Source: Octopus sinensis
Lineage: Eukaryota
Direction of reading: 5' to 3'
Length of the DNA: 64,000 nt
Assembly (NCBI RefSeq): GCF_006345805.1
Contig: NC_043021.1
Location: forward strand, 28,334,001 to 28,398,000
In this document: one piece after another, positions 7,061 to 59,781 of the stretch
Layout of the letters: each line of letters begins with the position of its first letter
Numbering within the stretch: the stretch's first letter is position 1
Position numbers and translations under genes: made by a program
The notes under the pieces: generated by a model
The model's input: only the letters and a program-made list of their open reading frames with translations
Databases searched by the model: none
What the model was told of the DNA's origin: nothing

Positions 7061-7570
<510 letters not shown>

Positions 7571-12432: not shown

Positions 12433-12595
12433 GGCTGGCATGGGTGTGTGTTTAAGAAACTCGGAGTGGAGCCACGCGACTTTGAGTTCAGTCTCACTGT
12501 GCAGCAACTTGGGCAAGTGTCTTCCACTAAAACTCCAAAATGCACGATGCCTTGTCAGTGAATATTGTCAACGGAAAGTGTGTGGAAGCCAGTTA
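12433..12595 (+). mobile_element. SINE family A diverged head
   Basis: gagttcagtctcactgtgcagcaacttgggcaagtgtcttccacta. Confidence 0.6.
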
Positions 12596-12601
12596 TATAT
12601 A

Positions 12602-13250
<649 letters not shown>

Positions 13251-13384: not shown

Positions 13385-15480
13385 TCTGTTGTTATCATTC
13401 CTCCTGATCTTCCCCTCTCTAAAGCTGGGCGCTCAATTCTCAGCAGGGGTCCAGTTACTGCATCCAGTAACGAATTTCAGACCCGTGCTGATATTCATAG
13501 CTTTGTGCGCCGTGTCAGGTTATATTCACTATTGCACAACGCTTCCCCTGCATCCAACGAAGAGGATCGCTTCACCAACTTGGGCCGCCGACCATTCCAC
13601 TGAACGCCAGCTCCTGGCCAATTCCAAGCAGTCGGTCATTTTGCAGGCATCTGCCAATGTGTTGTGGACCGGTTTAACTTTCGCAGGGGTCTCCGACATC
13701 TAGAGTTCTCCCCGACCGAACTCTAAACTCTTCGATGTCTCCGACGCTGCAAAGACATTATCATAAAACTACAAGGCTGGAGCCGTGGTGGTGTGGTGCG
13801 CAGACCTCTACAAAGCTGAAGGTCTCAGCCAACTTCAAGACACCTACTTCTATTACTCTCTATCTTCAACCCCCACGCCTAGATACCAAATGACTGTGTC
13901 TTTCACTTTCGATGACCTCAGCTCTTCCTCCCCATCTTCCTCCCACCACCCCCAATCTCACTATACGCACTCCACGCATCCCCACCATTTACTCCCTCTC
14001 CAAAATCCACAAGCCCATGAAACTTGACGGCCCCATCGTCTCCGCCTGTAACTGTCTCGCGGAACTGATATACGTCGACCGTGTCCTTGCCCCCTAGTGG
14101 CTTCCATCCCCGCCCACATCCATGACGCTAACCATGCTCTCCGTCTTTCTCCTTCCCTAATGGACCCGCTAAACTTCTCTTCAATATTAATATCAAAAGT
14201 CTATATACGATGATCCCACACACCAAAGGACTTCGAGCCCTCAAACACTTCCTACACCTTCGACCTAACCCCCAACTTGACACGTCTATACTGCTTCGTA
14301 AGGCCGAACTTATTCTCTCCCTCTACTGCATCTCCTTCGCGGGGAGTTTTACCAACAATTTCGGGAGTGCCCATGGGAACGAGAATGGGCCCCAACTATG
14401 CGAAACTGTTCGTTGGCTACGTTGAAGCCCAAATATTTTCAAGATTCACGGGCCAAATCCCGAACAATATGGTCGTTATATTGATGACCGTATCGGTGCG
14501 ACCTCGCTCTCCTGCAAACAACTAGCCTCCTTCCTCTCTTATTTCCATTCTTTCCATCCTACCCTCGAATTCACCTGCACTATTTCGAACACTTCCACTG
14601 CCTTTCTCGACATTTCGGCCAACATACACAACTTCGCTCTCACTACCTCCGTCCACTACAAGCCTACCCACTCACACTCATACCTCAACTTCTCCTCCTC
14701 CCACCATACCCACGTGAAGCTCTCCATCTCCTACTCCCAATTACTCCGTCTGCGCAGGCTCTGCAGTGACAACCATGACTTTGAGACTCAGTCTCAACTC
14801 ATGGCTCGCTATTTCAGCCTTCGTGGATATACCCTCACGTATATATAACCTCGTGGATATACCAGAGCACGTTCTGTGGACCGTTCCGCTACGCTCCTCT
14901 CCCCGCATACGCCTCAAAGTTGCCCGTCTTCCGTTACCCCTCACTTACCACCCTCCACCCTGTCTTTCCAACGCACTTTTCTCCTAGCCTTCCGGCGACA
15001 CTAGTGCGACCACTCCACCTCACACATCTTCCCCAACCTACGCCTTTCCTCCTTCAAACGAGCCCACAACCTACGTGACCTCCTGGTCCACAATTTCTTC
15101 CCTAACCCCACCTCCCGACCTCGCTCGTTCCTTTGCTTCCGCACCTGCCCCTACATCACCAACATCACCATCTTCACAGGCACCCATCATCGTCCCTATT
15201 ATATCACTGACTCCTTTACCTGCACTTCTAGCAGCATCATTTACTGCATCTCTTCCTGTTTCTTCCCTTCTCTGTACATCGTTCAAGCGGGACGCCGCTT
15301 GGCTGACCGGTTCGCGGAGCACCTCCGAGATATTGGACTCGGCAAGGAAACCCCGGCTTCACACCATTTCCGCTCTACCGGTCATTCATTACAACACCTG
15401 TATTCGGTTTGTCTTTGCACAGAGGCCATCCAGATTCCCACCTTCTCTCTTTGTCCTTTGCGTTACATGGGCTCAACTAC
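13385..15480 (+). pseudogene. Penelope-like RT/GIY-YIG ORF, multiply frameshifted
   Basis: Motifs above are spread over several frames with in-frame stops. Confidence 0.85.
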
Positions 15481-16279
15481 CCTCCCCTCTTCCACTGACT
15501 CCCCTCCTCCCCTCTCTTCATCTGACACATACTTCTCTTCAGTCCTACCCACCTCTCCTCACTTCTTCTCTTCATTCCTATCCACCTACTCCCTTCATTG
15601 GTACTCCCTTACATCCACACCCCAAATATTCTACCCCCACATACCCCACCCTATCCCTACACCTCGACCTCAACACCCACGTCCTCACCCCACCCCCACA
15701 TCTCCACTCCACCCCCACATCTTCACCCCACCCCACATCTTCACCCCACCCCACATCTTCACCCCACGCCCATATCCTCACCCCACCCCAACATCCTTAC
15801 CCCACCTATATCCTGCCCCATCCCTACATCCTCACTCCTACATCTTCACTCACACATCCTCAAGCTAAACCCACACCCCACCCACACATCCCATACTCCC
15901 CACACAGACGACATCCCCTCTCTCCCACTCCCCCACACCACACACCACCACAATACATCACACCACACCACTCCACCCACATTAGCACTGACCACTTTCC
16001 AGCACCCACACCATCATCTACACACCCACACATTAAAGTCGCACACACAAACACGCACACAGCCACACGTCAAAGTCACTAGGTCCTACCACACGCCCAC
16101 ACTTACACACTCTCACATGCACACGCACGCACACCTTCGTTTTGGGATCACCAGTACTTTATTATCTCCCCTTTTCCCTAATTCCTGTGTCCAGCTACCT
16201 TTTCCCAACCACTCGCTATGAGTGATCGCTAAATCCACAAGTTTTTTTTTATTCTATCTCTGTTTATTTCCTTGCATTC

Positions 16280-24690: not shown

Positions 24691-24811
24691 TAAATTTTCA
24701 AAATTAATTTCAACAAACTTAGAGTATTTGAACGGAAATACTTTAGCAAAGTGGTTAAAAAAAAAAAAACCTTATAGGCGCAGGAGTGGCTGGGTAAGTA
24801 GCTTGCTTACC

Positions 24812-26814
24812 CGCACATGCGCGTTGGTGTTGCTTATTACAGAGAACCGAGGTGGACGTGAGTGTGTTGGCTCTTGTCCAATACTGAACTGAAAGAAAAC
24901 ATCAGCATAAGATGGAGGTGGATTTGTTTTCGTTTGAGCTGGGTGTAATTTGTCAAATAGTAATTGTTTGTTTGTTGATAAATTTCGCCCAGCTCCGTGG
25001 CAATTCTGCCTGCTGTCGGCGGCTGCTGCTTGTTGTTTTGTTGTATTGGGGGGAAAAGGGGTGGGGGTATATCCTCGCTCGAACTTACTGGATTTTGCCA
25101 TTGAAACTTGTTGGATTACCATTGAACCTACGAAGTTGGCCAGGAGTACCTGTTGGCCATTGATGTTTGCTGTGTGAACCGGTTTTTCTTTTCTCTATCT
25201 TTCTATGTTTCTTTTTGGAACTGTTTTTGCGTTTCTTTTGGATTTTATTTTTTATTCATTTTTTGAACTGACTTATTTATTTCTTTTTGGACTTCTTGTT
25301 AACTTATTTGGACTTTCCTTTTTCTTTTGAACTGACTTTTAACATGGCAAAGGCAAAAAAGTGCCTTACAATGGGAGGTGGTCCCATCTAAGTAATGGAT
25401 TACAAACCGTGAGAGAAGAACGGTGGTACGACGGATCTATTCTAGGTCACGTGATGCCATCGCCCTCCTCGACAAGGGTATCATTAATAAAGAGCTGGCA
25501 AAATATTTGCCAGCCAAAAATTATTATATAACCAGGGGTGTCAAATACGCCACAGCGTGGCTGCTTTTTGACACCCCTGAGGAGGCTTGCACTGTGGCAG
25601 GCTAGCCCTTGGAAGGGGAGGAGATTTTTGCTTGTTCCCACATATCGTGGGAAGAAGGTAATAAAGGCCTGGGTAAGTGGTCTGCCCCCGGGCACCGAAG
25701 CGGGGTGGATTGCAGATGCCATCCGGAGGGGCCTGGGGAATAGTGGGCCCAGGCTCTTAAATATAGAGATAAAGCCTGCGGTCGACTGGGAGCAAAGGGT
25801 ACAAAGGCGACTTTGACCCTATGGACTCCAGTGGCAGCGGGTGAAATGACTTTCCTTGACTTTTTGAAAATGGATGGCTCAAGGTATCCAGTGATACTTG
25901 AGGGTCGCCCCACCCAAGTGTCACTCGTGCCTGGAGTTAGGCCACATTAAGAAGGACTGCCCCGGGGCCGTCCGCTCTCCCATTGCTGGGAGAAACAGAG
26001 GAAGTCGTTGAGGCATCGGCCTCAACGAGAATGAAAAGAAAGGTGAGAAACAATGGTTGCTCACCAACAGAGGCGCAGGTTGCGGGAGACGCGGAAGACC
26101 CCCCCCCCCGAGTGTGTCACCGGAGGCCCCGACTCCCGCAACCGTAAGAAGGAAAAAGAGGAGGAAGAGAAACGGGAGACGGTCGGCGGATGTCGCTGTG
26201 CCGCCGACCGAACCCGATGCTACTCCAGTTGAAGGTGCAGCACTGGAGCGAGAGGTTCTGTCAGTTGGAATTGTACCACTGACAGAGCAGGCTGAGGCCT
26301 CTTCCCGTGAAGAGGAGTTGAAACCCGTCATTTTCTATCTCAGGGGAGGTCCTGTCGAGTAGTGCTTGGACGGTCTTCCAGGCCGAGAACGATTGTCCAG
26401 GCTGGCCTCCGCAGGTGGCTGCAGAGGTCATGAGTCAGAAGGAGCTGTTCCAGGTCTTGGTGACCTGTAATAAGGAAGATTTTACTTTCCTCTTTCCGGG
26501 CCCCTACCTGCAGGCGGCGGGTCATTTGCTTGGGGGCTCCGATGAGGAGGATTGATCTTATAGATTGTGTGTATATTGAACAATTTATTGTATATATTTG
26601 TAAAGGACTGTTAAGTCCAATAATTGTAAAAACTGTCGTTGCTGCTTGAAAAAAAAAACAATGTTTTAGAGAAGCAGAAAATCGGCGGACGTTTTCTGCC
26701 CTCTCTCATCAATATCATCCTTGTTTCATCATTCACCTCATCAATGTACATGTCCAGCCTGCAAGCTACTCTTTGTAATGCCTTTATATCAAATCTTAAT
26801 GAAATAATGAAATA
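24812..26814 (+). mobile_element. ORF1-only non-autonomous non-LTR retroelement (Tx1/L1-type, HAL1-like), element 1
   Basis: Perfect 16-bp TSD at 24796-24811 and 26815-26830; T-rich 5' UTR; decayed gag-like ORF with CCHC knuckle; A-rich tail taatgaaataatgaaata; no EN/RT motifs seen. Confidence 0.85.
25343..26560 (+). pseudogene. ORF1/gag-like protein: RRM-like repeats, CX2CX4HX4C knuckle, basic then acidic tail; frameshifted
   Basis: RIYSRSRDAIALLDKGIINKELAKYLPAKNYYITRGVKYATAWLLFDTPEEA..LVPTYRGKKVIKAWVSGLPPGTEAGWIADAI..YPVILEGRP..CHSCLELGHIKKDC (about 25919-25960)..RRKKRRKR. Confidence 0.8.
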
Positions 26815-27635
26815 AAGTAGCTTGCTTACCAACCACATGGTTCCGGGTTCCGTCTCACTGCGTGGCACCTTGGGCATGTGTCTTCTACTATAACCTCGGG
26901 CCGACCAAAGCCTTGTGAGTGGATTTGATAGACGGAAACTGAAAGAAGCTTTCGTATATATGTATACATATGTATGTGTGTGTATATGTTTGTGTGTCTG
27001 TGTTTGTACCCCCAACATCGCTTGACAACCGATGCTGGTGTGTTTACGTCCCCATAACTTAGCGGTTCGGCAAAAAAGACCTATAGAATAAGAACTAGGC
27101 TTAGAAAGAATAAGGGATGGGGTCGGTCTGCTCAACTAAAGGTTGTGCTCTTGCAAGGCCGCAGTGAAATAACTGAAACAAGTAAAATAGTAAAAGAGTA
27201 TCGAAAATAATGAATTAATAAATGAACGAATGGCTAAATGATAGAATGATAGAATGATAGAATGATAGAATAGACGGAGCTGTCGTTGATTAATGTTATA
27301 AGTTAAACATCTAAATTCAAATGATACAAACTATCAAAATTAGCGAATTAACAAATCGAATAGAATGGATGCTGGAATAAAGAATATGTAACCGAGGATT
27401 CATAGAACAAGTAAATTAAATGACACTTTACACGCTTGTCACCGCAGAGTAACCTTGGAGAAAACGATTCATACCACAACTAAAAATGTATGGAAAAAGA
27501 ACACCCAAAAATCTACACCACGCATCGGAAACTACGAAGAAAGCCAATAGCTTCGATGGAGCTGTTATCATATATAATATATAAGTCGGTGCTCTTTGAC
27601 TGAAACAAGTAAAAGAATATACATACATACATACA

Positions 27636-27693
<58 letters not shown>

Positions 27694-27729
27694 ATGCACA
27701 TATGTATGCATACAGCATGAAGTATAAAT

Positions 27730-27975
27730 GTTTTATTTGTTTCAGTTATTTCACTGCGGCCATGCTGGACCACCGCCGTTACATGAGCAAATAGACCCCC
27801 AGGACTTATTCTTTGTAAGCCTAGTACTTATTCCATCGGTCTAATTTTCTGAACCGTTAAGTTACGGGGATTTAACACCCAGCATCGTTGTCAAGCGATG
27901 TTGGGGGGGACAAACACAGACACACAAACATATACACACACACACATGCATATATATATATATATATATATATGC

Positions 27976-28009
<34 letters not shown>

Positions 28010-28086
28010 ATATAATATATATATATATTATATATGTATATATATATATATATTGCATATATACATATGTATATAATATATATATA

Positions 28087-28161
<75 letters not shown>

Positions 28162-28360
28162 TGCATATATATATATTATATATATATATACATATTACGA
28201 CAGGCTTCTTTCAGTTTCCGTCTACCAAATCCACTCACAAGGCATTGGTCGACCCGGGGCTATAGCAGAAGACACTTGCCCAAGATTACACGCAGTGGGA
28301 CTGAACCCGGAACCATGTGGTTGGTTAGCAAGCTACTTACCACACAGCCACTCCTGCCCC
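27730..28360 (-). mobile_element. SINE family A with expanded internal (TA)n
   Basis: 3' half about 27730-27935 and 5' half about 28195-28360, separated by about 260 bp of TA repeat at the usual internal tract. Confidence 0.85.
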
Positions 28361-28367
28361 TACATAT

Positions 28368-28502
28368 GAACGGCAACGTGAAACTCAGAGTAACAGGTTT
28401 TGTAGAATTTTCTGCTGCTTTAAATAAAGCATATTACTCTACCACTGGTATTTGAGTACTCTTTTTTACCACCTTGTTTCACATTTATGTGCTTACTCCG
28501 GT
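28368..28502 (+). mobile_element. Penelope-type terminal repeat fragment (same family as 32672-32820)
   Basis: gaacggcaacgtgaaactcagagtaaca..taaataaagcatattactctacc..tttatgtgcttactccggta. Confidence 0.75.
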
Positions 28503-28524
28503 ATATATATATATATATACACAC

Positions 28525-28604
<80 letters not shown>

Positions 28605-29015
28605 ACAAATTGAGATAGGGGTTGTAAATGCAACCCTCTATGGGATAACGTATATCCAAATACTGTTAATGAAGTACCCAACAAAGTTAATACATAAATG
28701 TTAATGATTGCGATGCAATCAATTCATTCACTGTATTATATGGCCAAAGGTAAAATGATTTACCACAAATACAAGATAAGAAAATGGAGAAATACATCTA
28801 AATCAAATATCAATTACCAGATAATACTCAATCACATACTTTATTAAACCACCACATAAGAGACAGTAGGGTTAAATATAAAAAGCAGAACAAATCAGTG
28901 TACATAATGGAATGTACATAAAAAAGTGTACATAAAAGAGTAATGTATAATAAGTAGAATATATATATAAAAGAGAATATAAATACAAGTAAATATAAAT
29001 ATAAGTATAAATTAG

Positions 29016-29141
29016 ATCTTACAGCTGTTTCGGCCATGTCGATAATTATGTCTCATTTTACCAATATTAGCCCTTTATGGTTGGTCAATATATAGATATA
29101 AATGAGACATTAACAAAATATCACAAGGCCTCTTCGGAGAT
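29016..29141 (-). ncRNA. Type I hammerhead ribozyme motif with long stem II
   Basis: Minus strand atct-CCGAAGA-ggcc...ggcc-GAAAC-agct-GTA-agat; stems I, II and III all pair. Confidence 0.7.
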
Positions 29142-30441
29142 TATGTAATATAACTCAGTCTACATATATACCCACATGGTGTGGGTGCGTACCCACAATA
29201 CAACATATATATATACATATGAGTGCATATACTCACACTCCTATACATATAAAAATATACATTTACATAATGATATAAATAAATAATATAAATTAGTAAA
29301 CATATATATGTGTTCCACACTCAATGTCTCAGTTTTTCGACTTAATACTGTGATATTAAACATACGCAAATTAATACCTAGATGCAAATATACATAGTCA
29401 ATAGTACATTATATTACTTCATAATAGTTTCTAAAGTGTCATTAAAGTTAGTATCATTATCGTTGTCATTACAATTAATGTTATCATTGTTATCATTCAT
29501 AATTTTATTAATAACTCTTACATTATGATCCAGAGCTGAATATATGTCCGTGTTCCAGTTAATAATTTTCCTTATGGCATAAATACACTATTGGATTTGA
29601 ATTTAAAATTATCATTATCTTCCTCACGGTTGGTCAATTCAGAACCGCCCGACCTCCACCACACCGTACAAGCAAAACATACACATCCACATCTAACCCT
29701 AAACCCATACATCCACACAGAGAATCACACACACATGTACACACGCATGAATACACCCCGACACATCTTTACAATAAATTGGAGAGTGCGTGTCTGTCAT
29801 CGTATGGCTTATAGACATATCAGTACAGGCAGCAGTGTCTAACACTAACACACACACTCACACGCACATCCGCATATACGCATAAATATTAATACACTTT
29901 CCTATACTGTGTCAGGGAACTTTCGCACACACACATATATATATATATATATTTTTTAAATATATATCTGCGCACTCATACGTACAAATAAAACCCATAT
30001 TTATATCTACCCATGAATGAATATTCGCATATACATATATACACATCCAAGTACGCACCTGCGTGCTTATATGTGTAATAAAAACATACATCCGTACCTC
30101 CACCCACGATCATACCTATATGTACAAAAACATATATACTTACACATACACATTTTCACACACCTACAGGGGTTAACCCTACAGTCTCTTATGTGGTGAT
30201 TTAATAAAGTATGTGATTGAGTATTATCTGGTAATTGATATTTGATTTAGATGTATTTCTCCATTTTCTTATCTTGTATATATATATATGTATATACATA
30301 CGACAGGCTTCTTTCAGTTTCTGTCAACCAAATCCACTCACAAGGCTTTGGTCGGCCCGAGGCTATAGTAAAAGACAGTTGCCCAAGGGGCCACGCAGTG
30401 GGACTGAACCCGGAACCATGTGGTTGGGAAGCAAGCTTTTT

Positions 30442-32195
30442 TATTGAGTGAAATTTGCCATGAATTCCTGCCATAGAGGTGACAGCACAAGTTGGGGACA
30501 AAAAAAAATAGAATGGAAAGAGTGAATTAATATAATGAAATATGAAATGAAGCCGTTCGGCTCCACCTCCGAGCGACTTCATTGAACCTGTTCATACCAC
30601 CATTATAAACTAGTTTATAATGTTTTTTTTCTATTATTATTAGCGACGCCTAATTACCACACTTCCGAAGAATGTTTACATTATATTCTTTTAAAATATC
30701 CTGAAAACTTACTTGTTTCGGCATTGAACTGGTTTCGAATTTCTTGACCCACCAATTATAGTCCTGATTTACCTCATGGTCCTTCACTTCCAACATATAT
30801 TCAGGGTCTGCCATTACACAGCGAATGTACTCGGGCACCCTTTCACTCCTGATACAGCCACTTTTATAGCATTATCCCACAAGTCTATCTTTGTCATATA
30901 GTTCTTCGTTTCGCCATTGTACAATATAAGGGCGAGGGTGGGGAAATTTGGGGCTCCTGCGTGCTTGTGTTTGTCTTCATGTCAGGTGCGGCATAATGAG
31001 GGCTGGTGTCTGTAGGAGGTGGTTAGGGGTAAAGTGGGTGTGGGTGTGGGTGCGAGTCGGGTGGGTGTGAGTGGGAATCGGATGGGAGTCGGGTGGGGAT
31101 GGGATGGGGTTCGTCATTTTCAGTGTGTGCCTCTTTTCTCATTGCTTTCTTTCTCCCAGCTGTTTCCCATTCATTGTCCATCTCCTCTTCTTCGACGGTA
31201 GTACTGGTCTTTGTCTGTGGTGCCACTTCACTCTCCCTTTTCACAACCTCCACGGGCAGTGGAGCACCAGCCACTTTCTGACTCTCTTGTCTTTCCTTAG
31301 CTTCCTCAGGTGGTGGAGAACAATCTGCTCTAATGTGGCTTTTTAGGCCACATTTATAGTACCGCGAAATCCTTCCATCCACTCTGACTTTCAGTGTTGC
31401 GTCTCCGACCGTAATAGTCTCTACCATATTTTCGATATCTTCCACGGCAACCTGTACCACCATATCGAGGCTTTGTCCTTGCCAGTTCCTGTGGGATTTT
31501 CTAGTGGCCTGGAGGACCACCACCTTCTCCTCCTTACTTAACAGTATGGCAGCTACCAGCCAGGCTACATCCACTTCAGGGGGGTATGTCTTTTACCCTA
31601 ACACTGGAAGCACATCTCTCACGGTATACAGAGAGAAGCACCACTTCATCAGTTCTCAACTATGTTGCTGAGGGCAGCCTGGCAGTAGCTACCTCCCGAA
31701 ATCGCTCCTCCACTCTCCCAAATTTTCTTCCTCTGGCAAAGTAGGAAATTCCTGGCCAGACTAGTTTAAGCGCCCTTTCTACTTGAGCCGTCGTCAGGAT
31801 TTCAGTCTTCCGAGCTGCTACCGAGTACGTTCTGTAAATTATTTCCTTTAACCCTTCTTTGGGAGGGGAACACCTTTACATTGTACCCCTCCCTTTTAAT
31901 CATTTCCTTGAATTTGCTTGTATCCTCCAGCCACATGTCTTCCCTTCTTTCTTTGTTGCCTCTGCATAATTTTTAGACTCCATCCTCTTCAAACACTCCA
32001 CCATTTCTTCCTCAGATGACACACAGTCTGAAGAAGGATAGTTCAGAAAGTCTGAAGAAGAAGAATTCAAAACTTCACAACTCCTCGCCCGACGCCTCTC
32101 CATTAAACAAGAGGGAAAATGTTGCACCGCCAAGGCAGCAAACAAAAGACGGTGTTACACTCAAAACCAACAATTCGACTGACAAACGCTATACC
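30442..32195 (-). mobile_element. ORF1-only non-autonomous non-LTR retroelement (Tx1/L1-type, HAL1-like), element 2
   Basis: Imperfect about 15-16-bp TSD (gggaagcaagcttttt 30426-30441 / ggtagcaagcttctt 32196-32210); decayed gag-like ORF; 3' end ..cactcaataa; no EN/RT motifs seen. Confidence 0.8.
30650..32103 (-). pseudogene. ORF1/gag-like protein homologous to 25343-26560; frameshifted
   Basis: NYAEATKK..YRTYSVAARKTEILTTAQVERALKLVWPGISYFARGRKFGRVEERF..VLLSVYRERCASSVRVKDIP(fs)PEVDVAWLVAAI..LKVRVDGRISRYYKCGLKSHIRADC..EWETAGRKK. Confidence 0.8.
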
Positions 32196-32463
32196 GGTAG
32201 CAAGCTTCTTAGCACACAGCCACTCTTGCGCTTATATATGTATGTGTATATATATATACACACATTTATAAATGCATGTGTGCTAATTTACGTGCATACC
32301 TCTCCTGTTATGTAACTATAAATATTCATATGTATATAAGTATATGTGTACATATATATATATATACTAATACAATTGTTTGTTTGTATTCCACCTGCCT
32401 TCGTCTTTTGTTTATTTCCGTAAACCTGCCTTCGTCTTTTGTCTATTTTCATAAAGCTTCCCG

Positions 32464-36133: not shown

Positions 36134-39100
36134 TAAATCCTTAAATCCTTAAAAATGTTTTAGCCCGAAGGCCGCGGCCATGCTGGGGCACCACCGCTGA
36201 ATGAGCTACACTAATTTGTGAATCCACCTCTGATACGTGGCACTTGATCAACAAGGGAGTTCGATGCTGCTGCCCGCATCCGCGTCTCCTGTCGTGAGGT
36301 AGGTTCATATGGGACTCCCGACAAGAAGAGATCCAGTTTAGTTTTAAAGAAACCCACATCCACACCATGTAAGTCTCTCAGGCATTTAGGGAGGATGTTA
36401 AAGAGCTGTGGTCCTCTGAAACCCAAGCTGTTGCAGTATCTGGACCTGTATTTTGATGGTGATGTTGGAATCCTTGGCACCATGCAGTGGTGCCCCGTTC
36501 TGCGGTTGGAGTAACTTTGAATGCCAAAGTTTGGGACAAGACCCTCCAGGATTTTCCAGATGTATATCACCACATATCTCTCCCGCCTCCGCTCTAGGGA
36601 GAAGAGGTTTAATACCTTCAGTCTTTCCCAGTAGCTGATATTTTGCATTGAGACGATTTTCTTTGTGTAGCTTCTCTGAATTGCTTCGAGTTCTGTTGTT
36701 AGTTTTATATTGTGTGGTGACCAAAGTTGGGAGCAGTAGTCCAAGCGGCTGAGGACGAATGTTTTCCATAGGACCATCAGTGTCTCCTTCTCTCTTGTTC
36801 TGAAAGTTCGGAGAATCCATCCAGCTAGCTGTCTGCATTTTATCACCAGATTAGCAATATGCATTTGGAAAGATGCATCATTGCTCATGTCAATGCCCAG
36901 GTCACGCACTGATTTTGACTCAGGGATTGCAATTCTTCCTGGGCCAGTGTATCCAGTCTTCACGTCATTTACCTTTGTGTGCCAGTAACGCAGGGCCTGG
37001 AACTTACCTGCATTAAACTGCATGTTGTTGTCCTAAGCCCACCTGTATATTGTGTCCAGCTCATGTTGCAGATGCGCAATATTTTCAGGGTTTTGTATTG
37101 CGTGGGAGACTTTTGTGTCATCTGCATAGCTAGCAAGGGTGGTCATCGTAGCAACTGAAGGCATGTCTGAAAGGGCCACTATGAACATCAGTGGCCCCAA
37201 GACAGTGCCCTGTGGGACACCGCTTGTTATTTCCGTTTCCTTGGAGGTGGCTCTATTGCTCACAACTACCTGTTTTCTGTCTTTTAGGAAGTTGTGCAGC
37301 CACTCTCCAAGTTTCCCGCCTATGCCGAGACCACGCAGTTTGTGACAGATCATACCATGGTCGACTTTATCAAAGGCTTTTGCAATGTCGAGATATATTA
37401 CATCCACATTTGAGCCATTTAGTAGCTGTTTCAACACCCAGTCATAGTGTTGCAGGAGCTGTGTTAGGCAGCCTCTACCTGGTCGAAATCCATGTTGGGT
37501 GTCAGACAGCAACTCATTTTCTTCAAGGAACATGATTAGTTTCTTACGGACTATTCGTTCCATGACTTTGCTGATGTGTGAGGTCAGAGAGATAGGCCTA
37601 TAATTTTTAGCATCTGCTCTGCTACCTCCCTTATGGGTAGGGCATATTACCCCCTCTTTCAATTTGACTGGGAGCTTACCACATGCAAGAAAGCTCTGAA
37701 AAAGAATCTGTAGCGGTTTTGCAAGGGCTCGTTTGCACGATTTGAGAAGGATCGCTGGGAATCCATCAGGTCCAGCAGCTGAGTTTGTGTCAATCTCATC
37801 AATGGCTAGTGTGATATCATCATCTTCGATGTTGATGTACTCAATTTTTGTCTCTTTGGCCGCAGGTAAAGTGGCAAAGAATTCTTCTGGGTTGTTTACT
37901 TGCCTGTGTCCTAGAGATGTAGTAAACACACTTTGGAACTGTTCGTTCAGTATTTCACTTATCCTCGTGGGATTTCCTGTGAGAGAGCCATCTTTTTGAA
38001 AGAGAGGTCCTATTCTCTGGTGCACTGTGGCTGTCTCTTTGGCAAACTTAAAGAAAGCTTTAGGGTTTGATTTTCTATTTTCTATTACCCAAGCTTCTTT
38101 ATCTGCTCTCTCCTTTTCATGGGACTGATGTAGACTTTTCTCAGTTTCCATTAGCATTCTTTCGAGCCGAGACTTCTCACCACTTTTGGTGTGCTTGCTC
38201 AGGCGGTTTGCAATCCTTGTCCGTTGTCTCATAAGAATCCTCCTTTCTCTAGGGATCCTGTTTTTGTTCTTGTGTGTGCTGGCCCTGCACACTGGGACAT
38301 ATTTGTCACATATGGCTTGTATTATGGACATGAAGTGTTTGTGTTTCATGTTTATGTCCGGTGTGGAGAGACATTCAGGCCAATCCTGTTTGAGGATATC
38401 TTTCTCAATCAACTTCCAGTTGGCTTTATGAAAGTTTAAGTTGGAGAGATGGTGGGTGCTTCGTATAGGCTGTGAGCCTACGGGGGCTTTTGTTCCATAC
38501 ATAGACAACTCTATTATGTTGTGATCCGAGATCATTGTCGGCATCGCATTAACATTATGGATAATATCCATATTGTTTGTGAAGCAGAGATCCAGTATAT
38601 TATCTGCCCTTGTTGGTTGCAGAACTATTTGCTCCATGAAAGAGGCATTTGTGAGATGGAGCAGGGACTCCACCTGTGCCTGCTGATGGTGTGTCATCCC
38701 TGGGAGCATCTGCCCCACCAGGCCATTCCACATTGGGGAGGTTAAAATCACCCATGAAGAATACACTGTTGTGCTGTTCAAGGTTGGTGAGGACTTCTCC
38801 TATTTTTGTTAGGCAGTCTTCAAACATGCCTGAGTGTTTTGGGGCATCTGGTGGGCGATATGTAGTGCATATGACGATATTCAGTTGCCTTATGTGTACA
38901 ATTTGAGTTTCACATACTGAGTTTGAATATGACAGCAGGACCTGGGGCGTGAGGTCATCTCGGATGTACATTGCAATTCCACCATGGCTCCTCCCTTTTC
39001 TATCTGTGCGTATGACTGCATATTGCGGCATGTGTATTTCTGCATCACCTATATCGGGTCCAAGATGCGTTTCTGTGAGTGCCATGCATATAGCTTGATT

Positions 39101-39180
39101 GCATGTCACAAGGTCTCTCAGGAATGAAATTTTTTTTTACAGTTTCCGCGCAGCAGCCCTCCTACATTCAGTAGAAAGAA
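36134..39180 (-). mobile_element. CR1-group LINE, 5'-truncated at the start of ORF2 (APE endonuclease + reverse transcriptase), inserted in (TA)n
   Basis: APE motifs ALTETH, GGIAMY, YRPP, GDFNLP, NILDL, ISDH; RT motifs AAGPDG, NYRPISLTS, QHGFRPGR, YLDIAKAFDKVDH, GVPQGTVLGP, YADD, DLG; short 3' UTR with stem-loop and 8-bp terminal repeat (TTTAAGGA)2. Confidence 0.95.
36211..39175 (-). pseudogene. LINE ORF2 (EN-RT) with one in-frame TAG (37033-37035), a frameshift near 38720 and another near 39130
   Basis: ORF-track segments 38600-39109, 37033-38781 and 36211-37023 join into one EN-RT protein. Confidence 0.9.
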
Positions 39181-41866: not shown

Positions 41867-42252
41867 AAATGAAAGAATGGAGTTAAAGGACGAATTAACA
41901 AAATTCCTTTATTTTATTTTCGACATATGTTTCGAAGGCTACATATTCCTAATTTCGAAGGAATAAGGGGTGCATTATGCCGCCTTCTCATCAGGAAAAA
42001 CAAGGAACTTATGTCAGCATCAAGATGCACAAAAACTTTTAGATGGCTGCCCACACGGAGCCTATAGCGATATTATCTAAAAGTTTTTGTGCATCTTGAT
42101 GCTGACATAAGTTCCTTGTTTTTCCAGATGAGAAGGCGGCACAATGCACCCCTTATTCCTTCGAAATTAGGAATATGTAGCCTTCGAAACATATGTCGAA
42201 AATAAAATAAAGGAATTTTGTTAATTCGTCGTTCAACTCCATTCTTTCATTT
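41867..42252. mobile_element. Near-perfect palindrome (about 178-bp arms, 30-nt spacer) with HHR in each arm
   Basis: Minus arm ttttc-CTGATGA-gaaggc...gccttc-GAAAC-atat-GTC-gaaaa (41917-41999); plus arm has CAGATGA. Confidence 0.85.
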
Positions 42253-59340: not shown

Positions 59341-59745
59341 CAGGAGTGGCTGTGTGGTAAGTAGCTTGCTAACCAACCACATGGTTCTGGGTTCAGTCCC
59401 ACTGCGTGGCACCTTGGGCAAGTGTCTTCTGCTATAGCCCCGCGCCGACCAATGCCTTGTGAGTGGATTTGGTAGACGGAAACTGAAAGAAGCCTGTCGT
59501 ATATATGTATATATATGTGTGTGTGTGTATGTGTTTGTGTGTCTGTGTTTGTCCCCCTAGAATTGCTTGACAACCGATGCTGGTGTGTTTACGTACCCGT
59601 CACTTAGCGGTTCGGCAAAAGAGACCGATAGAATAAGTACTGGGCTTACAAAGAATAAGTCCCGGGGTCGATTTGCTCGACTAAAGGCAGTGCTCCAGCA
59701 TGGCCGCAGTCAAATGACTGAAACAAGTAAAAGAGTAAAAGAGTA
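59341..59745 (+). mobile_element. SINE family A, near full length
   Basis: caggagtggctgtgtggtaagtagcttgctaaccaaccac...gactgaaacaagtaaaagagtaaaagagta, inside (AAT)n. Confidence 0.9.
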
Positions 59746-59781
59746 AATAATAATAATAATAATGATAATAATAATAATAAT

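Follow-up and report, generated by a model that had tools for sequence, protein, structure and literature searches.

Why should two copies of a short interspersed element (SINE), on opposite strands of one chromosomal region, be interrupted at the same point of their head sequence by long inserts that do not resemble each other? The question is raised by a 64,000-nucleotide stretch of the Octopus sinensis genome (contig NC_043021.1, positions 28,334,001 to 28,398,000; hereafter the window), for which a preliminary description had proposed a retrotransposon system that targets the SINE. Our analysis makes such a system highly probable. A 5.4-kb element of the L1/Tx1 group and many families that carry only its first open reading frame (ORF1) occupy one site in the SINE head; the endonuclease encoded by the second open reading frame (ORF2) likely nicks this site, and a shared 3' hairpin likely gives the ORF1-only RNAs access to ORF2.

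Two interrupted SINE copies in the window

Both inserts were located where the preliminary description had placed them, at one head site in SINE copies on opposite strands, and both are oriented like their host. The duplication of about 16 nt that had been described is also present on either side of each. Insert 1 occupies positions 24812-26814 on the plus strand between two identical 16-bp copies of the target (24796-24811 and 26815-26830). It is preceded by the 5' part of the SINE head with an A-box-like motif (24777-24795; 3 nt missing), and followed by the remainder of the SINE with a B-box-like motif, body and tail (26831-27200). Insert 2 lies on the minus strand at 32195-30442, flanked by 15-bp duplications at 32210-32196 (5' copy) and 30441-30427 (3' copy) that are identical in 13 of 15 positions, with 2 mismatches. 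Here the head piece spans 32232-32211, and the remainder (30426-30284) holds a B-box-like motif and the first part of the body. The site is unfilled in all five SINE copies that had been named for comparison, which lie at 1670-2081, 7211-7564 and 59341-59760 on the plus strand and at 12593-12983 and 27731-28360 on the minus strand, the last with an expanded (AT)n middle.

The inserts are decayed non-LTR (non-long terminal repeat) retrotransposons that carry ORF1 only. They have no DNA similarity to each other (BLASTN, best E 0.43), and TBLASTN with two full ORF2 proteins detected no endonuclease or reverse transcriptase (RT) in either (best E 0.73), in line with the earlier description. Element 1 belongs to what we call group I. 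Its ORF1 remnant (25344-26555, plus strand) has a predicted tandem RNA recognition motif (RRM), a CCHC knuckle at about 25922-25960 and a basic low-complexity region, the frame being disrupted by stops and frameshifts. The element ends in the 3' tail shared by the whole system (26772-26816), with a decayed hairpin, an AATAAA end and no poly(A), and its final two A's (26815-26816) are common to element and duplication. Element 2 belongs to group II, in which ORF1 is nearer that of the autonomous element, and keeps a broken ORF1 remnant on the minus strand with approximate limits of 30650-32050 and a knuckle at about 31358-31320. The claim of a CCHC knuckle in both inserts holds in part, since the first Cys of the second knuckle reads Tyr. 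The two proteins had also been said to align throughout. Direct TBLASTX of insert 1 against insert 2 was not significant, the frames being too decayed; ORF1 homology was recovered through less decayed relatives of each (about 25% identity over 183-198 amino acids, E 1e-11 to 2e-18), where it is confined to the N-terminal half.

In public contigs from two runs, which carry different organism labels, the unique left flank, the SINE head and the start of insert 1 are contiguous, so this junction is not an assembly artefact. Contig joints that skip insert 1 were considered as an empty allele and rejected because their sides are short and derive from other SINE copies.

One target site throughout the genome

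The host SINE is a high-copy, non-coding, interspersed repeat of about 400 bp, and a 33-nt motif of its head has 28,247 exact matches. By eye, the head contains A- and B-box-like motifs at tRNA-like spacing. On inspection of the sequence the insertion site corresponds in position to the D-loop/anticodon arm of a tRNA. ARAGORN (0 genes), Rfam and phage BLASTN did not identify the head as a tRNA.

A genome of 2.72 Gb was searched with DNA queries free of SINE sequence. For the families of inserts 1 and 2 (families 1 and 2) this gave 1,562 and 450 first-look candidates, 40 of which were scored in each case, and element ends were then read in the 29 best other copies of each family. Of the intact ends of family 1, 16/16 on the 5' side and 19/21 on the 3' side were at the site, the remaining two continuing into the SINE body after a deletion. 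The corresponding counts for family 2 were 17/17 and 18/21, giving 33/33 intact 5' ends at the SINE site for both families together. Three family 2 copies (L050-L052) are identical duplicates; they lie on small contigs, with a gag-like LTR-type frame after each, and represent assembly redundancy or a recent duplication.

A pattern made from the 3' tail only, which left out G at the seventh flank base, matched at 784 places genome-wide (control, 0). A hand count of the first 100 showed the target following exactly in 72, with one mismatch in 20 and with two mismatches or an indel in 5; unrelated sequence followed in 3. Reversed-pattern controls gave 0 matches in the tail, filled-junction and empty-site searches, which excludes chance. 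Targeting of one site by the relatives of both inserts, as originally proposed, is borne out by the 33/33 5' ends and by 92 of the first 100 of the 784 tail matches. The preliminary description had named unrelated flanks at most other copies as evidence against itself, and the SINE site flanks nearly all of them. Random insertion was rejected on account of this near-absolute choice of site. The readable 3' flanks sampled were in all cases SINE or a tandem element, and in none a recognised tRNA gene.

Exact filled 3' junctions number 327 and exact empty sites 28,247, both lower bounds, which means that about 1% of sites are filled. Any effect on the SINE family is therefore small. The inserts had been suggested to break the SINE promoter: the A- and B-box-like motifs are indeed parted by kilobases, and judging from these motifs an insertion would silence the copy that is hit, but only about 1% of the exact sites are affected. 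An A variant of the site was found in 30/100 filled junctions and 8/100 empty sites (first 100 rows each, the empty sites from the first 20 Mb of one contig); an older SINE subfamily, or else a preference, may account for this excess.

From the first 85 filled junctions in the list, 79 were surveyed over 6-8 kb of upstream sequence, leaving aside four short inserts and two loci. ORF2 sequence occurred at 10 sites and ORF1 without ORF2 at 41 (34 of group I, 7 of group II), while 28 short or decayed inserts had neither. The 41 to 10 ratio upholds the view that several distant ORF1-only families share the site. At the 45 loci with a credible head, inserts of 40 to 5471 bp with many different 5' ends are joined to the same SINE head, and in 45/45 the two duplication copies carry the same A/T variant (31 T/T, 14 A/A). 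Different families are stacked in tandem with a duplication between each; L171 and L218, for instance, are an autonomous copy directly followed by an ORF1-only copy. The variable 5' truncation, the matching variants and the mixed tandems argue for separate insertions rather than a moving composite. The upstream flanks of the 45 loci are essentially unique, with only 3 short pairwise matches of 25-47 bp. In 13 young autonomous copies (of 17, 4 having been dropped for tandem or damaged SINE flanks) similarity is 99.0% between the 3' untranslated regions (UTRs) and 89.4% between the host SINE bodies, the element being the closer in 78/78 pairs. At G000:C1:114496027-114496106 two element tails lie about 15 bp apart on opposite strands, possibly as part of a palindrome.

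An autonomous L1/Tx1-group element and its probable ORF1-only passengers

The preliminary description had predicted members of 5-7 kb with an apurinic/apyrimidinic-type endonuclease (APE) and RT. An element of this kind was found, 5.4 kb long and encoding ORF1, APE, RT and a zinc finger. Three full-length copies at the SINE site (L092, L106 and L109) measure 5371-5471 bp and contain ORF1 and ORF2. In another copy, L171, a 467-residue ORF1 frame has a zf-CCHC match and an 1130-residue ORF2 frame matches Exo_endo_phos (PF03372, 3e-11), RVT_1 (PF00078, 5e-27) and zf-RVT (PF13966, 7e-9), all four above the Pfam cut-off. The best PDB match of ORF2 is human L1 ORF2p (2e-33), before R2 (3e-17). In a protein search with the ORF2 C-terminus, for which 138 of 30,618 candidates were scored, the best 34 rows were 96-100% identical, indicating that the autonomous lineage is young. 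Autonomous copies were chosen for their ORF2 similarity, namely the top 18 next to the query and 8 with 76-89% identity, and in 26/26 the 3' flank was the SINE site. The SINE and the autonomous element have no sequence in common, so this long interspersed element (LINE) is not obviously the SINE's own helper.

These data show the autonomous element to be a non-LTR retrotransposon of the L1/Tx1 group. As in the L1 group, ORF2 combines an N-terminal APE, RT and a C-terminal zinc-binding domain in one 1130-residue frame, and a nucleic-acid-binding ORF1 lies upstream (the 467-residue zf-CCHC frame; the model of a homologous ORF1 resembles tandem RRM proteins). The marks of target-primed insertion are present as a fixed 3' end, variable 5' truncation and a short duplication. 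Membership in the Tx1 clade is likely, on ORF1 type and target specificity rather than on an RT tree: ORF1 is of type I, with RRM and CCHC instead of Transposase_22, and an APE-encoding element integrates sequence-specifically. Homolog searches, cluster look-ups and the ESM Atlas yielded no named Tx1 protein. Of the Tx1-type endonuclease postulated earlier, the presence of an APE-bearing element at the site is confirmed (26/26), and its Tx1 affiliation is likely only. A sister lineage with 64% ORF2 identity was in (TC)n in 14/14 copies read, of 18 rows listed. These copies (L172, L173, L191-L202; e.g. G000:C6:112872100-112878300) are young, with ORF2 frames of 1135-1138 codons, and some are in tandem. 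Fish ORF2 homologs are fused to ZCCHC3-type RRMs. A large group of ORF2 proteins of about 1150 residues from metagenome contigs (P0005-P0031, P0331-P0347) is 39-47% identical to the octopus ORF2 and nearer to it than named fish or lancelet elements.

The many ORF1-only families span 1.5-2.3 kb. They contain ORF1, lack ORF2, are multicopy, have LINE-type ends and share their 3' end with the autonomous partner, which shows them to be non-autonomous LINEs of the HAL1, HeT-A or Ag-Sponge kind. HAL1 proper derives from vertebrate L1 and has a Transposase_22 ORF1 and a poly(A) tail. Assignment to HAL1 proper was rejected, as Pfam scans of ORF1 matched the knuckle only, with no Transposase_22, and poly(A) is absent. 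In every family the element terminates in AATAAA with no poly(A), and a 4-bp hairpin precedes this end by about 15 nt. The hairpin belongs to a 3' tail of about 30 nt that is common to the autonomous and ORF1-only families (66 distinct tails), outside which no wider DNA similarity between the two was found. In the 66 tails 92% of cells are paired, against 80.4% in shuffles, and double-sided, compensatory changes number 26 against 4.6; slid controls reach at most 52% pairing.

A quick, midpoint-rooted tree of 77 ORF1 segments, several of them long rows, placed 43 rows including insert 1 on one long branch, group I (SH-aLRT 100). ORF2 accompanies none of these 43 rows, nor any of the 34 junction loci with group I ORF1. 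With this rooting the (TC)n lineage is nearer the SINE-targeting ORF1 than group I is, and group II, which holds the relatives of insert 2, is nearer the autonomous elements. The tree script flagged L044 and L019 as having ORF2 by locus match alone, and the match of L044 is that of a tandem neighbour. The ratio of nonsynonymous to synonymous substitution rates (dN/dS) is 0.09-0.29 between group I subfamilies, at dS 0.85-2.1, and 0.60 among decayed copies of family 1. At the level of substitution patterns, the former values show purifying selection on ORF1 between subfamilies.

The ORF1-only families had been described as old, which does not apply to all of them: one group I subfamily comprises 46 copies at 94-100% amino-acid identity, some with an intact ORF1. 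Its open-frame copies that were fetched (3/3) are 2.25-kb elements with intact ORF1 and both junctions; the intact copies L215-L217 have ORF1 frames of 416-422 codons. The SINE-site end was present in 8/8 loci of the set fetched here. L211 was considered as an autonomous group I element and rejected, its RT match belonging to a nested, unrelated LINE. This LINE (L211:1875-5051 in minus-strand numbering) is RTE-like, 3.2 kb long and ends in (GAT)n; it is nested in ORF1 and forms a third layer, a LINE in an ORF1-only element in a SINE. Two autonomous-type copies, L132 and L165, retain ORF1, part of the endonuclease and the end of ORF2, with most of RT deleted, and are possible intermediates towards ORF1-only elements. 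The 5' UTRs (L100-L169, L215-L218) vary widely between families and many begin with CTTCCG- or CGCATGCG-like words resembling ETS and NRF1 promoter motifs; such similar words on differing UTRs suggest repeated promoter swapping.

A structural model of ORF1 (pLDDT 75.5) has two RRM-like domains followed by the CCHC knuckle. Its best Foldseek matches are tandem-RRM proteins (best E 4e-5; VIA Z about 8, rmsd 2-3 Å per domain), and ZCCHC3-type RRM proteins are among its look-alikes in the ESM Atlas (0.90). The annotations of four octopods, Octopus sinensis, O. vulgaris, O. bimaculoides and Argonauta hians, include relatives of ORF1. Those annotated as host proteins in the four octopods (P0177, P0179, P0182, P0183, P0185, P0199, P0218 and P0219) are probably transposon copies in gene models.

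The window holds further repeats. An unrelated LINE at 36214-39136 (minus strand) is fairly intact; its endonuclease and RT frames have 178, 588 and 273 codons. Decayed frames at 14426-15865 (plus strand) gave no Pfam match above the cut-off; on visual inspection they resemble a Penelope-type element in its RT end and nuclease. A near-perfect palindrome occupies 41867-42252 (178-bp arms, 98% complementary, 30-bp spacer), and inverted pairs lie at 18399-18570/21478-21649 and 39285-39449/41478-41642.

Mechanism, alternatives and meaning

The 3' junction is fixed just past the A-box-like motif and the 5' junction lies about 8-17 nt beyond it, giving the short duplication. In the mechanism that we propose, ORF2 would nick the bottom strand just past this motif, with a second break 8-17 nt on, and reverse transcription would be primed there on the RNA 3' end, as a target-primed, sequence-specific APE-RT reaction. 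The element lacks poly(A) and ends in AA, which matches the AA present in the target. The 3' hairpin would serve as the recognition signal of ORF2 and recruit it to ORF1-only RNAs, each passenger presumably needing its own ORF1 for packaging its RNA. With the duplication the cut site is restored, and elements of other families have subsequently been added there in tandem. At least about 28,000 SINE copies, if dispensable, would offer a large, low-cost target, and the SINE may in this sense be the 'safe harbour' that was suggested earlier.

Several observations weigh against this reading. Cleavage, mobilisation in trans and the need for ORF1 are steps that we infer. L171 is the sole fetched copy with both frames open, and a stretch of about 33 residues in its ORF2 deviates from L092; from the sequence it looks like the outcome of two offsetting frameshifts, so no demonstrably functional helper was seen. 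Group I and autonomous ORF1 are only 27% identical, so the helper of group I could be an unsampled lineage, given the 138 of 30,618 candidates scored. The hairpin has only 4 bp and was derived from the same related sequences, and the number of pairs with double changes, 3 of 4, does not exceed that in shuffles (207 of 500). Two family 2 copies have a non-SINE 3' flank. At 30 of the 79 surveyed junction loci the 6-8 kb surveyed yielded no head, and 4 further loci were false matches and were dropped. The start of the element is blurred in several copies of family 1, whose flanking duplications are not identical close to the 5' junction.

Four other explanations were weighed. The elements might owe their position to a composite unit of head, insert and SINE body, formed in a few chance insertions and copied whole by the SINE's helper LINE or by segmental duplication. 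SINE sequence on both sides of nearly every copy, the tendency of families towards one SINE variant and the three identical duplicates L050-L052 would fit. A composite would not be expected to leave 5'-truncated inserts attached to the head, host SINEs much more divergent than the young elements inside them (78/78 pairs), upstream flanks with only 3 short matches of 25-47 bp among 45 loci, mixed tandems of different families, or duplication variants that match in 45/45; this explanation is largely refuted and we consider it extremely improbable. That the ORF1-only elements are recurrent dead-end internal deletions of autonomous copies, rather than lineages of their own, is suggested by L132 and L165, with most of ORF2 deleted, and by the position of the group II ORF1 nearer the autonomous one. 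It is hard to reconcile with a long separate group I branch whose 43 ORF1 rows are all without ORF2, with ORF2 in 0/34 group I junction loci, with purifying selection between subfamilies and with a subfamily of 46 young copies; the sole group I locus with an RT match contains a nested unrelated LINE. We regard this explanation as very unlikely.

The choice of site itself could have another basis. Tethering to RNA polymerase III factors, or RNA-DNA pairing of read-through transcripts, could provide the specificity in place of endonuclease recognition: the site adjoins the A-box-like motif, transcripts may continue into the downstream SINE because the element has no poly(A), and cotranscription with the target is discussed for R2 and SINEU in the available part of PMC4494074. 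Against this stand a base-precise, one-directional 3' junction, the occurrence of the 64%-identical sister lineage in (TC)n (14/14), as expected if the enzyme sets the target, and the matched duplication variants, which argue that the 3' copy is not RNA-borne. We hold this to be unlikely. Slightly less so is the idea that a tRNA gene, or else an ancestral tRNA-like repeat, was what the endonuclease evolved to cut, and that the SINE head is a look-alike that absorbs insertions. The position of the site at the D-loop/anticodon arm, as seen on sequence inspection, points this way, the targets recorded for other non-LTR elements include tRNA genes (PMC4640811, in part), and group I subfamilies have diverged to synonymous saturation, perhaps predating the present SINE subfamilies. 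The sampled readable 3' flanks, all SINE or tandem element with no recognised tRNA gene, and the failure of ARAGORN and Rfam to call the SINE head a tRNA speak against it. This explanation concerns origin and is compatible with ORF2-directed insertion into the SINE head.

The ingredients have precedents in the published work, cited here from the portions available. Among the targets of Tx1-clade elements are other transposons, snRNA genes and microsatellites, and in crocodilians Tx1-Mar brings SINEU passengers into a Mariner (PMC4494074). Tx1-Mar and SINEU-3 resemble the octopus system in that an APE-type LINE prefers another abundant transposon, non-autonomous passengers share its target, the duplication is about 16 bp and tandem insertions flank a duplication; their target is a Mariner DNA transposon instead of a SINE head, and their passengers are non-coding snRNA-derived SINEs, whereas those of octopus encode ORF1 (PMC4494074). 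The same source summarises Tx1 of Xenopus (into Tx1D), Keno (U2 snRNA), Kibi ((TC)n) and Koshi ((TTC)n), which also encode an APE and insert sequence-specifically into multicopy targets; the octopus sister lineage is, like Kibi, in (TC)n, and no SINE target is named there for the four. SINEs are not named either in the target-class list of non-LTR elements in the available part of PMC4640811. ORF1-bearing non-autonomous LINEs are represented by HeT-A, HAL1 and Ag-Sponge, from Jockey, L1 and CR1, which also have ORF1 only and are mobilised by an autonomous partner; no Tx1-derived one is listed in the parts available (PMC5786205, PMC5753468). The octopus elements differ from them in having tandem RRM plus CCHC instead of Transposase_22, no poly(A) and an internal 16-nt site. 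In non-mammalian animals an ORF1 with RRM and CCHC is associated with Tx1 (PMC5203782, in part). Automated or curated annotations of octopus genomes count L1-Tx1 families, with 80 consensus families reported and 13 recently active in O. vulgaris, in the portions available without target analysis (PMC13282606, PMC8967140). The words 'target', 'nested' and 'HAL1' are absent from the main text and supplement of PMC13282606, and the available part of PMC4758252 has nothing on a SINE-targeting system. A full-text literature search turned up neither a SINE-targeting LINE nor ORF1-only derivatives of Tx1 in cephalopods; subscription papers, Repbase Reports and Dfam were outside its scope, and the families may already have entries there. 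Each ingredient is known; a SINE-head target combined with ORF1-only passengers was not found in the literature searched.

The system adds a SINE head to the targets of sequence-specific LINEs, and a class of ORF1-only passengers beyond the listed L1, Jockey and CR1 cases. With one of two sister enzymes (ORF2 identity 64%) at a 16-nt SINE site and the other in (TC)n, a change of endonuclease target becomes testable in one system. Why non-autonomous elements keep ORF1 can be addressed here too, since many subfamilies show purifying selection on it and young intact copies are available for assays. An integrase that is compact, acts with base precision and relies on a short RNA signal also has relevance for tools of site-specific gene insertion, and the ORF1 copies annotated as host genes in several octopod genomes are a practical annotation issue. 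We put forward only tentatively that group I is ancient and self-perpetuating, its ORF1 having split off before the SINE- and (TC)n-targeting lineages parted, and that it has persisted without ORF2, its retained 3' hairpin tracking successive helpers, which it now outnumbers within SINE heads. HeT-A forms tandem arrays at a fixed kind of site. If this history of group I is true, the octopus genome would harbour a three-layer parasite system of SINE, SINE-targeting LINE and ORF1-only passengers that is HeT-A-like but at dispersed sites, together with a sister endonuclease pair of switched target.

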